A stretch of DNA of 64,000 nucleotides from a bacterium (GTDB lineage Bacteria; UBA8248): positions 1,440,001-1,504,000 of the forward strand of contig OZ241326.1 of the NCBI GenBank assembly GCA_965199855.1, in the 5' to 3' direction. The notes under the pieces are model-generated. The model saw nothing but the letters and a program-made list of their open reading frames with translations. It did not search any database and had not been told where the DNA came from. A program made the translations under genes and the position numbers. This document shows, in pieces, positions 19,088 to 25,291 of the stretch. The first letter of the stretch is position 1. Every line of letters starts with the position of its first letter.

Positions 19088-21160
19088 ATGAATCGGCCGC
19101 GGCGGAAGAACCGTCTCGCGCAAGAGACGAGTCCATACCTTCTCCAGCACCAGAGCAATCCGGTGGATTGGCATCCCTGGGGGGAGGACGCGCTCCGCAA
19201 ATCCAGAGAGGAAAACAAGCCCATTTTCCTCTCCGTCGGCTACTCGGCGTGCCATTGGTGCCACGTGATGGAGCACGAGAGCTTCGAGAACGAGGAAATC
19301 GCCGGAATCCTGAACGAGCATTTCGTCTCCATCAAGGTGGATCGGGAGGAGCGTCCGGATATCGACGGCATCTACATGGAGGCGGTTCAGATGATGACGG
19401 GGCAGGGCGGCTGGCCCATGAGCGTCTTTCTGTTGCCGGATTTGAGGCCCTTCTTCGGGGGCACGTATTTCCCGCCCGACGACAAGTGGGGCAGGCCCGG
19501 CTTCAGGAACGTGCTCCTGAAGCTGGCCGAGGTCTATCGGACGAGACAGGAGGATTTGCGGGACAACGCGGAGAACATCACGGCGAACTTGCGGCGGATG
19601 GGGGCCGTTGCGCCCGCGTCGGGCGATTTGAAGGCGGACTGGCTGGAGCAGGCCGCGCGGGAGTTGAGGGAGCGATTTGATTCCTCCTGGGGCGGCTTCG
19701 GGCGCGCGCCGAAATTTCCGCCCTCCATGGCGCTGATGCTGCTTTTGAGAAAGTGGAGGCGAGGCCGGGATCAGGAATCGATGAAGATGGTCGAGGTGAC
19801 GCTTCAACGGATGGCGCTGGGCGGAATGTATGATCAACTGGGCGGCGGGTTTCACCGATACAGCGTGGATAACTACTGGCTTATCCCGCACTTCGAGAAG
19901 ATGCTTTATGACAACGCGCTGTTGTCGCGGGTCTATATCGAAGCCTTCCAGGCGACGGGAAGCTCGTTTTACCGCTCCGTGGCCGCCGATACCCTTGATT
20001 ACGTCCTGCGCGAGATGACGAGCCCCGGCGGCGGATTCTACGCGGCGCAGGACGCGGACAGCGAGGGAGAGGAGGGCAGATACTTCGTATGGCGGCCGGA
20101 GCAGATAGAGGAGATTCTCGGCAAGGACGAGGCGGACGTATTCTGCCGGTTCTACGGCGTGACGGAGGAGGGGAATTTCGAGGGGAAAGCCTCCGCCTTG
20201 TTCATTCAGAGGCCGCCCCGCGTTTTCGCCGAGGAGGAAGTAATCGAGGAAAGGGAGCTCCTGGGCATCCTGCAGAGGGGGCGCGCGAAACTCTTCGACG
20301 CGCGGGAGCGGCGCGTGAAGCCCGGCCTGGACGACAAGATTCTCACGAGCTGGAACGGACTCATGATCGGCTCGATGGCCCTGGCGGGCCGGGTTCTCGA
20401 ACATTCTCCCTACGTCGAGGAGGCGCGCAAGGCGGCGAATTTCATTCTCGGCAACGTGCGCGATGAGCGGGGCCTGCTGAGGAGCCATCGGCAGGGCGTG
20501 AGCAAATTCAACGGATATCTGGACGATTACGCCTTTTTGATAGCGGGCCTGGTGGATTTATACGAGGCGACCTTCGAACCCGGCTGGATTCGCGCGGCCT
20601 CGGGCCTGGCGCGGGAGATGATAGCGCGGTATTGGGATGAGGAGGGAGGCGCGTTCTTCTTTACCGCTCATGATCACGAGCGGCTCATCGTCAGGAAGAA
20701 GATGACGCAGGACGGCGCCGTCCCGAGCGGGAATTCCATGGCGGCGCTCGGCTTGCTGAAACTGGCTCGCCTGTCGGGGGAGGCGGAGTTCGCTGAGCGC
20801 GGCGAGGGCGTTTTGCGCTCGTTCGGCGAGTATCTGGGCCGCGCGCCGGCCGCCTTTCACATGATGCTTGTGGCGCTCGACTTCCATCTCGCTGCGCCCA
20901 TGGAGGTGGCGATTGTCGGCGATCGGGGCGCGGAGGACACGCGCGCGGTGCTCCGGGCCGTCGCCTCCAGCTTCCTTCCCAACGCGGTTCTGGCCCTGAA
21001 GCCGGAATCGGCGGCCGGGGAGGCGGACGCCGCGGTGCCCCTGTTGCGCGGCAAATCCATGGTGGGCGGCCGGGCCGCCGCGTATCTATGCGAGAATTTC
21101 GCGTGCAAGGAGCCGCTCACGGACATGAGCGCGCTTGCGGAGGCGCTCCGGGGAAGCTGA
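19088..21160 (+). CDS. YyaL/SSP411 family thioredoxin-domain protein
   Basis: SPYLLQH, CHWCHVM, DREERPD and PHFEKMLYD motifs. Confidence 0.92.
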
Positions 21161-22249: not shown

Positions 22250-22891
22250 CTAGCCCCGGTATTTCGCAAAAGTCTCGCCGATGCTCGCGCCTTTTTCGAG
22301 TTCCGAGGTGATTTTCTCTTCGATTTCGGCCAGTTCATCCATTTTTTCGATGACTTCCCCGAGTCGTTCCCTGGGAATTACGACCACGCCGTTGACGTCT
22401 CCCAGAATGAAGTCGCCCTGCCGCACCGCGGCGCCTCCGCAGTTGATGGGCTCTCCCACGCTGCCGGGAACCGTGTATCCGCCGCTGCCGTGAACCGATA
22501 CGCCCCTGGCGAACACGGGGAAGCCCATGCGCCGGTGCTCCTCGATGTCTCTGGCTCTCCCGTCCAGCGCGACGCCGCCCAGCTTCATCGCCCGCGCCCG
22601 CGCGCTCATCATGCCGCCCCAGTTGGCCGTCGTCGCGCCGGAGGGGACGCTGATGACGACGACGCTCCCCTCGGCGGCCGCGTCGATGTGGTGCGTCCCG
22701 CGCCTGGGCAGGGGGCCGCCGCCGGCGGGAATCATCTGAACCGTATGGGCCTCTCCAGCCATCCGGCAATCGTCATCCGGCGACAGCAGGGCGATGTCGG
22801 GCATGTGCCCCCGGATGTTCAGCTTGTCGAAAGCGTCCGCCGCCTGGCAGGTGGAATAGCGCTTCAGGCGCTTCGTCAAATCGTTGCTCAC
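22250..22891 (-). CDS. RraA / HMG aldolase family protein
   Basis: ANWGGMM, DGRARD and GDVNGVVVIP motifs. Confidence 0.88.
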   Translation of the reverse strand: MSNDLTKRLKRYSTCQAADAFDKLNIRGHMPDIALLSPDDDCRMAGEAHTVQMIPAGGGPLPRRGTHHIDAAAEGSVVVISVPSGATTANWGGMMSARARAMKLGGVALDGRARDIEEHRRMGFPVFARGVSVHGSGGYTVPGSVGEPINCGGAAVRQGDFILGDVNGVVVIPRERLGEVIEKMDELAEIEEKITSELEKGASIGETFAKYRG

Positions 22892-22969: not shown

Positions 22970-23726
22970 CTATGCGCGAAATTCCAAAAAGCGCGCGCCC
23001 TCCGGGTCGAGTTCCTCCAGAGCCTTCAAGCTCGTCCGCGCTCGGCGGAGGGGTTTGCGCCACGACGCCCGGGCGATGCAGGTCGAAGCCTGTTTTCTCG
23101 ATCACCTCGTCCATCGAATGGCCGGCGTGAACGCTGGCGACTTCAAGCCCCGTCGGTTTTTTCTCGAACACGGCGATGGGCGTCACCACGTGGCTCAGGC
23201 TCCCGGATTGCGTCGAAAAATCGACTTTGGGCACGAGAAATCGCCTGTCGTGCGTCGTTCGCGCGATGATGGTTCGCTTTACTCGCGGCATGATGACGGC
23301 GCCTCCCCCTCCGCCGGGAAGCCTCACCTTCGGCCGGAGCGGGTCGCCGATGTAGCTCATGTTGGCCCGTCCCTGCTTGTCGAGCTGGGCCGCGCCCAGA
23401 AAGGCCGCGTCCGCCTCGCCGCGCGCGAAAAGATCGTAGATGTCCGGGTTCGAGAACAGCGCGGCGGCGCCATGGCAGAGCTCGGAGTCCACCGTGCTGG
23501 CCGGCATGAAGCGGGGCTTCGGGTCCACGGAGCCCGCGACTTCCATGAGCGCGCAGTTGGGCGCGTGAAGCTTCTTCGCCAGGAAAATCGCGACCATGGG
23601 GAGCGCGCAGTTGGCCCCGTGGAACACCTTTTCGCCGTCTTCGATGAGGCGAGCCAGCGTGACGGCCATCTGGTTGCCGGCGCGAACCACGCGCTCGGGC
23701 GGCGATGCGCGGCGGGCGCCCATCAT
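22970..23726 (-). CDS. CoA-transferase family I (GctB-like) beta subunit, with apparent +1 frameshift near 23025
   Basis: FLGAAQLDKQGRAN, RLPGGGG, HDRRFLV.KVDF and VIEKTGF motifs. The family-like tail ALEELDPEG...RA* is in another frame and ends at 22970. Confidence 0.8.
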
Positions 23727-24550
23727 CCCCGGGCCGCGCCCCGCGCGGGCGCTTTCCCGGCGCTCGCGAGATATTCCCGAAGCCCGCTCTCGCTCCGCGT
23801 CAAAGCCATGTAGCGGCGCATCTCCTCTTTGTCCACCCCGTAGTATGGGTGGCAGCTGCAGGGAGACGCGCCGCCCGGCGCTTCGACGACCGCCTTGACG
23901 AGAAAGCCGGGGATGCTCGTTCTCTCGGGTTCCGACGCGATTTCCCCGGGCGCGGCGATTCGCTCCGCCGTGAGAATCACCCCTTTTCGCGCCGCGCGCG
24001 TCATCTCGACGTCATAATGCCTGTTTCCCAGAATCCGGGCGTTGCCCTGCGCGTCCGACATCTGGACGTGGATCAGCGCCCAGTCCGGCTTCAGGGCGGG
24101 GATCGCGTGGAGCTCCTCGTTCGTGTAGGGGTCCCGGATCGTGAAGATGCCGCTTTGCTCCGGAATGTCGCTCCCCTCGAAGCCGCGGATGGGCTGGAAG
24201 GGAACGCCGTAGGCTGCGGCCCGCAGCCCGGCGAGAACGCTGGCTCAGGCGTGCTCGGTGAGGCCGGTCATCCCTTTCTCTATCGCCTTGCGATAGTTGG
24301 GCGCCAGCCCGAATTCCGCCTCGAAGGTGACGATGCCGCTGACGACCCTCCCGAGCGCGCCCGCGGCGCAAAGAAGGTCGGCGTCGTAGCCCGGCGAGGG
24401 CTTGATGAGCGTCAGGCGCCGAAGCCCCGCGCGCGCGATTTCCCGCGCGAGCGCGGCGGGCGTTCTGTGCAGAAGGGTGCCGCCGACGCTGATGGCGTCT
24501 CCGTCCTCGATGAGGGAGACGGCCTGCCGCAGGGAGGTTTGCTTGTTCAC
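23723..24550 (-). CDS. CoA-transferase family I (GctA-like) alpha subunit, probable selenoprotein (TGA at 24245-24247)
   Basis: Continuous 276-codon frame with one internal TGA: ...LTEHA-U-ASVLAGLRAAAYGVPFQP...DPYT...PALKPDWALIHVQ..D..GNA...PCSCHPYY. A SECIS-like hairpin follows the TGA. Confidence 0.85.
24205..24233 (-). promoter_or_regulatory. Bacterial SECIS-like stem-loop
   Basis: After an 11-nt spacer from the UGA: CGCCG-GGCUGC(GGGCC)GCAGCC-UA-CGGCG, with G residues at +23 to +25 in the apical loop. Confidence 0.75.
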
Positions 24551-24778
24551 GGTCGCTCCTCGTCCGGTCGTTCGAGGCTCATGCGGCGCGTTGAAAAATC
24601 CACGATGCCGCAGTCTAGCACAAGAAGGCGCTTCGCGCCTCCCGTCTTTCACGTTCGCCGCCGGGCGGCTTCGCGGGGTTCATTGACCGCGAACGTCGGG
24701 ATGGCGTAAATATCGCTGAAGCGAAGAGTTTTTATGGGCGGCATGTCCATCCGCGTGAATCCATCGAAAGGGCGTGAA

Positions 24779-25291
24779 ATGGCGCGAATTTCCCAGGTTG
24801 AGCCGGAACGGGCCGAAGCGGCCGCGAAGCGCATCATGGAGAATCTGCAAAAGCAGTTCGGCGTGGTCATTCCCCCGGTGAAGGCGCTGGCCCACAAGCC
24901 GGATTTTTTGCGCTCCCTGCTGAGCCTGACCACGGTGGCGGACGGCCCGGGGGAAATCTCCGTCGGCTTCAAGGAAGTCCTGAACATTCGCGCGTCGGTG
25001 CTCAACGGGTGTCATTTCTGCGTGAACATGCACTCGAACATGGCGAGAATGCGCGAGGTGGACGACGAGAGGACGAAAGCGGCGCGGGAGGGCTCCGCCA
25101 GCGATCTCTTCGATGAGAAGGAAAAGGCGGCACTTCGCCTTTGCGAGGAAAGCACGCGGGGGGTGCGCGTTTCGGACGAGACGTTCGAGGCGCTGAAGGC
25201 GCACTATTCGGAAGCGCAGATTGTGGAGCTTCTCGGCGCCGTCGCGCTCATCAACGCCTGGAATCGCCTCATCGTGGGAATGGGCTTTTAG
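24779..25291 (+). CDS. Carboxymuconolactone decarboxylase/AhpD family protein
   Basis: NGCHFCVNMH (CxxCxxxH), and IVEL...INAWNR at the C-terminus. Confidence 0.88.
   Translation: MARISQVEPERAEAAAKRIMENLQKQFGVVIPPVKALAHKPDFLRSLLSLTTVADGPGEISVGFKEVLNIRASVLNGCHFCVNMHSNMARMREVDDERTKAAREGSASDLFDEKEKAALRLCEESTRGVRVSDETFEALKAHYSEAQIVELLGAVALINAWNRLIVGMGF

Follow-up and report, generated by a model that had tools for sequence, protein, structure and literature searches.

What does an enzyme with the fold of a class I coenzyme A (CoA)-transferase do when its beta subunit appears to lack the catalytic glutamate and the gene for its alpha subunit carries an in-frame TGA? This question is raised by a pair of overlapping genes on the minus strand of a 64,000-nucleotide (nt) stretch of bacterial DNA (contig OZ241326.1 of assembly GCA_965199855.1, forward-strand positions 1,440,001 to 1,504,000), which we refer to as the window. 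A first-pass annotation, made from the sequence alone, had proposed that a valine takes the place of the glutamate in beta, that the TGA in alpha encodes selenocysteine (Sec) and that the pair performs chemistry unlike that of a transferase. Alignments, searches with structural models and comparison of related loci lead us to the view that the pair probably encodes a glutamate-less non-transferase that acts on an acyl-CoA, with the cysteine or Sec of alpha as the catalytic residue. The argument starts from the following features.

22970..23726, minus strand: beta subunit gene (CoA_trans fold, glutamate-less), from the open reading frame (ORF) list, the sequence and Pfam PF01144.
23532..23564, minus strand: motif A55-P-N-C-A-L-M-E62-V63-A-G65 of beta, placed by alignments.
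23723..24550, minus strand: alpha subunit gene with a GTG start, 275 codons and one in-frame TGA, from the translation with TGA read as U and Pfam PF01144 (E 2.5e-20).
24245..24247, minus strand: TGA read as Sec, alpha residue 102, in the motif T-E-H-A-U-A-S, from the TGA/Cys column in relatives.
24205..24233, minus strand: hairpin resembling a selenocysteine insertion sequence (SECIS), core GGCUGCG-GGC-CGCAGCC, starting 15-20 nt past the TGA, from folds and comparison of TGA loci.

Pfam assigned the product of the beta gene to PF01144 (CoA_trans) with an E-value of 1.5e-17, and this gene starts with an ATG at 23726 that shares bases with the TGA stop of the alpha gene lying upstream (ATGA). 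The motif is encoded at 23564-23532, inside the span 23520-23570 to which the first-pass annotation had drawn attention; the codon of Glu62 lies at 23543-23541 and that of Val63 at 23540-23538. In an AlphaFold model of beta with a predicted local distance difference test (pLDDT) score of 91, residues 59-62 form a strand that is followed by a loop at 63-65. The NCBIfam models for 3-oxoacid CoA-transferase subunits scored below their cut-offs with both proteins (alpha, 38.2 bits against 128.5; beta, 30.9 against 243.6), and NCBIfam gave no named family for either subunit.

Three alignments agreed on which residue of beta occupies the catalytic column. A phmmer search against solved structures returned AibB as the best match to beta (E 4e-29), followed by GctB (E 6e-20), with IpdB marginal (E 0.03-0.09). 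In this search Val63 aligned to the sole column that varied among five AibB chains (c/a/s/n/v), and those chains are titled C56A, C56S, C56N and C56V in Foldseek. AibB Cys56B is described as standing in place of the conserved catalytic glutamate of glutaconate CoA-transferases (PMC7756340, excerpt), and the catalytic beta residue of these transferases is named Glu54 beta (PMC5380842, excerpt). We also built a MAFFT alignment of 150 representatives at 50% identity, in which the Val63 column held Glu in 42, another residue in 86 and a gap in 22. The Glu-bearing representatives carried the motif [YF]-E-[SAG]-G, which fits the earlier statement that GctB-type beta subunits read APN-x5-E-S-G. None of the 47 best-scoring representatives had Glu in this column, the first that did being P0169. 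Finally, hhalign matched the profiles of the family (A1, 48 sequences) and of canonical E-S-G proteins (A2, 18 members) with a probability of 100; from the H-A-P anchor to the Gly anchor the match was free of gaps, and M-E-V-A-G stood opposite I-Y-E-S-G. The Y-E-S-G of the canonical member P0229 in turn aligned with the V-E-S-G of GctB (1poi_B, E 2.3e-40). We took 80 related loci from one-genome-per-species contigs and read the motif of each by tblastn; the alignment of beta spanned the motif in 79 of them (L059 was left out), and the catalytic column was Val or Ile in all 79. Sequence alignment thus confirmed that Val63 of beta holds the catalytic-Glu column (GctB Glu54, AibB Cys56) and that Glu62 lies one column earlier, and in this the first-pass annotation was right.

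By phmmer against the PDB the best matches of alpha were IpdA (7e-32), AibA (1e-31) and GctA (2.5e-28). Among the related loci alpha could be aligned in 77 (it is off the contig in L024, L065 and L075), and the column of the window TGA was Cys in 55 and a stop codon in 22, every one of these stops being TGA. When a 100-residue query around the TGA was compared with IpdA of Rhodococcus jostii, this column was the sole difference within that stretch between chain 6co6_A (Glu) and chain 6coj_A (Ala), and Foldseek gives 6coj the title 'IpdAB E105A COCHEA-CoA complex'. By this alignment the Cys/Sec column of alpha equals the Glu105 column of IpdA. In the PNAS 2018 work on IpdAB, Glu105 is reportedly the catalytic base of IpdA. 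By phmmer, the residue in this column is Gly in AibA and Gln in GctA. In the model of alpha (pLDDT 92.6) a strand at 96-99 is followed by a helix at 102-114, with Sec102 as the first residue of the helix, a position where reactive thiols and selenols are commonly found.

Several lines of evidence support reading the TGA as a Sec codon. A hairpin in the same register was common to 23 TGA loci (the window's own and 22 others). It contains a compensatory change from a C-G to an A-U pair in L038 and one mismatch in L050 and L054, and takes a shorter variant in L072 and L080. The hairpin covers the codons of A-G-L-R-A-A, a peptide for which the Cys loci use different codons. Over the segment from +13 to +42, the mean folding energy was -15.0 kcal/mol in the 23 TGA loci and -10.4 kcal/mol in 57 Cys loci of similar G+C content (Mann-Whitney p 1e-7, a value overstated because the loci are related). 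The genome that contains the window has a tRNA-SeC gene together with SelB (372 bits), SelA (548 bits) and SelD (344 bits), all over their cut-offs. The TGA and the codons of Glu62 and Val63 were unchanged in contigs of four runs. Bacterial selenoproteins with Cys homologues likewise combine a TGA at a Cys column, a hairpin 15-20 nt further on and tRNA-Sec, SelA, SelB and SelD. The sequence evidence therefore supports the view that the TGA of alpha specifies Sec and that alpha is a predicted selenoprotein, as the first-pass annotation had supposed; the TGA stands at a Cys column, the TGA loci have the hairpin in common and the genome carries genes for the Sec machinery. The selD gene of the same genome (C1:2985603-2986568, L095) itself contains one in-frame TGA, and by its sequence SelD is probably a selenoprotein as well.

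On a tree of 78 alpha+beta pairs (quick IQ-TREE setting, LG+G4, with a warning of several long branches) the fewest changes between Sec and Cys came to two, and the Sec forms branched basally when the canonical paralogue was used as the outgroup. The basal Sec pairs (L018, L019, L031, L038, L050, L054, L072 and L080) come from Chloroflexota, Thermodesulfobacteriota, Methylomirabilota and Burkholderiales-like genomes. Selenocysteine may thus be ancestral to the whole family and the Cys forms derived, with the direction left uncertain by the root and the long branches.

The first-pass annotation had suggested a test of whether Cys or Sec in alpha co-varies with the loss of Glu from beta. The outcome was positive: all 77 alpha partners had Cys or Sec, and they did so with Glu-less betas only. 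The same genome encodes two further alpha/beta pairs (C1:75566-76276 and C1:2865902-2866636, loci L002 and L003). Its Glu-less paralogue pair (beta motif L-N-V-P-G-G, beta 49% identical) has Cys in alpha, and its canonical pair (L-F-E-G-G) has His. Fused alpha-beta representatives that could be aligned in both halves (n=12) gave a similar picture. Those with Glu in the beta half had His, Asn and Asn in the alpha half (three of three); the four with an AibB-like Cys in beta had Val; and the two with Ala and Leu in beta each had Cys. One with Thr in beta had an IpdA-like Glu in alpha, and the two with Gly and Phe in beta each had Thr.

We compared the pair with three known systems of the same fold. 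Both subunits belong to PF01144, and their models matched GctA and GctB in Foldseek with template-modelling (TM) scores of 0.80-0.89. The beta model was closest to AibB (TM 0.86-0.89, ranks 1-10), then to GctB (0.80) and IpdB (0.79); the alpha model matched IpdA (0.88-0.89), GctA (0.89) and AibA (0.84). GctAB, the glutaconate CoA-transferase of Acidaminococcus fermentans (PDB 1POI), has the same fold in both subunits. GctB shares the H-A-P motif and the glycine-rich loop with the window beta; its Glu54 beta, in E-S-G, is replaced by Val in the window, and GctA differs in having Gln at the Sec column. IpdAB, the ring-cleaving hydrolase of COCHEA-CoA from Mycobacterium tuberculosis and R. jostii (PDB 6CO6, 6CO9, 6COJ and 6CON), is the best solved match of the window alpha. 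The residue altered in the E105A variant of IpdA stands in the exact column of the window Sec, so that this column is Glu in IpdA, Sec here and Cys in relatives. IpdB has only weak sequence likeness to the window beta (E 0.03-0.09), and the steroid context of IpdAB in the KstR2 regulon (echA20, ipdC and fadA6) was not found in the window. In IpdAB the beta glutamate is replaced by Gly57 beta and CoA-transferase activity is reported absent (PMC5380842, excerpt), the reaction being a retro-Claisen hydrolysis (PMC6678751, excerpt). The class I fold with two subunits is also that of AibAB, which in Myxococcus xanthus acts as a 3-methylglutaconyl-CoA decarboxylase (PDB 5MZW-5N03). In AibAB the catalytic beta glutamate is also replaced, and the substrate is an acyl-CoA rather than a free acid plus a CoA donor (PMC7756340, excerpt). 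The nearest solved relatives of the pair, AibAB and IpdAB, are therefore both non-transferases, which is in line with the expectation of chemistry unlike that of a transferase; we infer the type of chemistry from them.

The gene order at Cys-type loci is consistent with this expectation. At 22 of them a family III CoA-transferase, an enoyl-CoA hydratase, alpha, beta and an AMP-forming ligase lie in a row, and an AMP-forming ligase was found at 33 loci. The 22-locus operon belongs to the Cys-type N-V-A-G-G clade of Achromobacter, Delftia, Pseudoxanthomonas, Prauserella, Salinisphaera and others, whose loci also carry IclR or GntR regulators and TctC or major facilitator superfamily (MFS) transporters. 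The hydratase-alpha-beta order resembles that of echA20-ipdA-ipdB, where the two subunit genes also come after a crotonase-family gene (Table 1 of PMC5380842, excerpt). Because the Cys-type loci carry a ligase or a family III CoA-transferase, CoA activation would be supplied by other genes, and the presence of separate CoA-activating enzymes beside alpha-beta argues that alpha-beta is not itself a transferase and works on a CoA ester.

Taken together, these data lead us to propose that the pair is a class I CoA-transferase-fold enzyme from a large uncharacterised clade without the beta glutamate. Loss of this glutamate would make the glutamyl-CoA thioester of the transferase cycle impossible, and the invariant cysteine of alpha (Sec in the window's genome and at 22 other loci) would take over from it. 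The substrate is most likely an acyl-CoA, because beta retains a glycine-rich loop, R-L-P-G-G-G-G, that hhalign aligned with the corresponding loop in canonical enzymes; we take this loop to be the CoA-binding one. The acyl part would most likely be transformed by C-C cleavage, decarboxylation or hydrolysis, with the alpha Cys or Sec acting as a nucleophile or in acid-base catalysis; a thio- or selenoester, or a hemiketal adduct, are examples of intermediates that might form. A selenol has a low pKa and is a poor general acid. Given this and the exchange of Sec for Cys, we favour a nucleophilic or redox role over that of a general acid, and for the same reasons rank covalent catalysis above a proton donor of the AibAB type. 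C-C lyase genes follow beta, an RraA-like gene in the window and an HpcH/CitE-like gene at the Sec-type locus L072. A bolder form of the proposal, which we offer tentatively, is that the family constitutes a new class of selenoenzyme in which the catalytic residue has moved from the beta Glu to the alpha Sec/Cys and an acyl-CoA is cleaved or rearranged by way of a covalent seleno- or thioester (or hemiketal), as in thiolases but on an unrelated scaffold, with Sec possibly the ancestral residue.

A number of observations weigh against the proposal. The window hairpin, folded by itself, had no advantage in stability over shuffled versions of its sequence (z -0.51), and a search of 24100-24300 against Rfam gave no match beyond two chance-level hits; because the fold of the single sequence is no better than shuffles, the case for a SECIS rests on the comparison of loci. 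Since the 77 Cys/Sec pairs form one clade, the co-variation between the subunits is essentially close to one evolutionary event, backed by a few outgroup pairs among the paralogues of the same genome and the fused proteins. The proximity of Sec102 of alpha to residues 62-63 of beta is extrapolated from homology to IpdAB, and AibB variants at Cys56 are active, which means that a residue in or near the site need not be essential. The role of the alpha Cys/Sec could be redox, regulatory or structural. We found no CoA ligase or CoA-transferase gene in view of the window operon, which leaves weaker grounds for an acyl-CoA substrate here than in the Cys-type operons, from which it is extrapolated. 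We also found no characterised member of the family, and the substrate, the type of reaction and the role of the Cys/Sec that we propose are inferences. Finally, the beta gene of this genome carries a frameshift at its 3' end.

The alternative that survives best is that the pair is a cofactor-free acyl-CoA decarboxylase of the AibAB type, with, for instance, an enoyl-dicarboxyl-CoA resembling glutaconyl-CoA as its substrate. Most of the work would then be done by the geometry of binding, no covalent intermediate would form, and the alpha Cys/Sec would be a proton donor or have a redox or regulatory function. AibAB is a decarboxylase in which Cys56 beta lies in the Glu column and Glu72 beta belongs to a proton relay, and its C56A, C56S, C56N and C56V variants remain active (PMC7756340, excerpt). 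The Val of the window is thus the same residue as in an active AibB variant, and among solved structures AibB matches beta best, both in sequence (E 4e-29) and in fold (TM 0.86-0.89). The hydratase that adjoins alpha-beta at 22 loci would fit dehydration to an enoyl-CoA followed by decarboxylation. However, phmmer paired each of the AibB residues Cys56 and Glu72 with a Val of the window beta, and AibA has Gly where alpha has Sec. A residue conserved as Cys or Sec without exception (77/77) points to a more demanding role than a decarboxylase of this kind would give it, and a selenol would serve poorly as its general acid. The window also lacks an aib-type gene context, which we take to comprise genes for 3-hydroxy-3-methylglutaryl-CoA (HMG-CoA) synthase and the dehydrogenase AibC; the neighbours there are RraA-like, CMD and UxaA-like. 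We consider a decarboxylase of this type unlikely.

A second alternative is that the pair is still a CoA-transferase, with Glu62, one residue earlier, serving as the catalytic glutamate. This glutamate does adjoin the canonical column, the R-L-P-G-G-G-G loop is retained in beta, and IpdB also has an acidic residue (Asp) in the preceding column in the P0229/GctB alignment. Its distribution argues otherwise. The column before the catalytic one is Glu at only 13 loci (L006-L017 and L033), or 13 of 77 pairs; all of them belong to a single Nitrospinota-like clade, and the tree requires only one change to Glu62. Elsewhere in the family, including 8 other Sec-bearing pairs, the residue is Asn or Ser; among the 150 representatives Glu was present there in 2, and 31 of the 42 canonical ones had Tyr or Phe. 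Neither the MAFFT nor the hhalign alignment contains a gap from the H-A-P anchor to the G anchor, so that a shift in register could not be accommodated. In the model Glu62 ends its strand, and its side chain should point away from that of residue 63. We also considered whether Glu62 and Sec might be linked, as all 13 aligned E-V-A-G pairs have a TGA in alpha, and rejected this link: the E-V-A-G pairs are one clade, and the 8 other TGA pairs have Asn or Ser. As a single-clade substitution that is absent from these other Sec-bearing pairs, Glu62 is not to be read as a relocated catalytic residue; the alignments and the tree indicate that it is a clade-specific swap at a conserved Asn/Ser position. 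The first-pass annotation had described the glutamate as displaced by one residue, and this holds literally for its place in the sequence and fails for its supposed catalytic role. We give very little weight to a transferase that relies on Glu62.

The reading frame of beta requires separate comment. Compared with the 251-amino-acid representative of its cluster, P0002, the beta gene has one extra base beside 23028, by which the last ~20 codons are shifted and the ORF in its present form extends to 22773, into the RraA-like gene. P0002 ends ...LKALEELDPEGARFLEFRA in the other frame, and the C-terminal 21 residues of beta were found in a second frame in the window's genome. The extra base is missing from contigs of three other runs, from three studies, and the probable source run yields an identical contig that has it, at a depth of 131. 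Two explanations would account for the insertion at 23028: a genuine lesion peculiar to this strain, or an error common to the assembly and the probable source run. A contig of run X8 lacks one base at 23813, in the 3' part of alpha; this would shift the C-terminus of alpha in the population concerned and may be a contig error.

That the locus is a decaying pseudogene, with the in-frame TGA of alpha a nonsense mutation and the one-nucleotide insertion, which swaps the last ~20 residues of beta and recurs in the probable source run at that depth, a second lesion, is very unlikely: the TGA recurs at an invariant Cys column at 22 other loci in several phyla with a conserved hairpin, the Sec machinery of the genome is complete, both proteins apart from this have their full length and share 80-84% identity with relatives, and the frameshift affects the C-terminal tail alone, is missing from contigs of the three other runs and could be an error common to the assembly and the probable source run.

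The glutamate-less non-transferase that we propose lies among the following genes of the window.

22250..22891, minus strand: RraA-like gene (class II aldolase / oxaloacetate decarboxylase family), Pfam PF03737 (E 3.6e-32).
24734..25291, plus strand: CMD/AhpD-like gene, divergent, with a C-x-x-C motif (C-H-F-C), Pfam PF02627.
~26880-26506 and 26503-25325, minus strand: SAF small subunit and large subunit, respectively, of a split UxaA/galactarate-dehydratase-like enzyme.
27140-26796, minus strand: thioredoxin-like 2Fe-2S ferredoxin, preceding the split UxaA-like enzyme.
19088-21160, plus strand: DUF255 thioredoxin-domain protein, downstream.
21819-21166, minus strand: RlpA-like lipoprotein with DPBB and SPOR domains, downstream.

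The RraA-like gene lies directly downstream of beta, probably in the same operon, in the order alpha, beta, RraA-like. Among the 14 loci that make up the E-V-A-G clade, it followed beta at 11; for the remaining three, the contigs of L015 and L033 end too early past beta and L016 has a different neighbour. The CMD/AhpD-like gene stood beside the Sec-type pair at 12 of these 14 loci. Its best NCBIfam match was 'YciW-related (seleno)protein' at 83 bits, below the cut-off of 310, and its product could be a redox partner for the selenol. The UxaA-like dehydratase and the 2Fe-2S ferredoxin upstream of the pair were syntenic in the closest relatives only, and L006 has homologous domain proteins in the positions of the DUF255 and RlpA-like genes. 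One of the neighbour scans kept the longest non-overlapping ORFs and, the DNA here being GC-rich, often chose the wrong strand. When all ORFs of at least 130 amino acids were scanned at six loci, L038 and L050 showed housekeeping neighbours only.

CoA-transferase-fold enzymes without the glutamate are already known in AibAB and IpdAB. As far as our searches show, a clade in which the IpdA Glu105 column of alpha is invariably Cys or Sec has not been described: the literature searches found neither a CoA-transferase-fold selenoprotein nor Glu-less relatives of this Cys/Sec type in print (PMC5736913 proved to be unrelated), and NCBIfam has no model for it. Such a clade would represent a third solution beside AibAB and IpdAB. 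To our knowledge, known selenoproteins are nearly all oxidoreductases, and alpha would be a rare selenoprotein outside that classical group. With the catalytic Glu absent from 86 of the 150 representatives near the window beta, thousands of genes labelled 'CoA-transferase subunit A/B' or 'glutaconate CoA-transferase' probably do not encode transferases. The family occurs in Nitrospinota-like sponge and marine bacteria, Chloroflexota, Methylomirabilota, Acidobacteriota and Burkholderiales, and is found in operons for organic-acid catabolism by way of CoA esters. Cultivable hosts of Cys-type enzymes, for which Delftia acidovorans and Paraburkholderia (loci such as L077) are candidates, open the chemistry to direct testing. 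On a contig from a Nitrospinota metagenome-assembled genome (L016:816-3235), a Sec-type alpha-beta pair is directly followed by a second alpha gene with Cys, after which come a CoA_binding_2 gene and a hydantoinase B/oxoprolinase gene.

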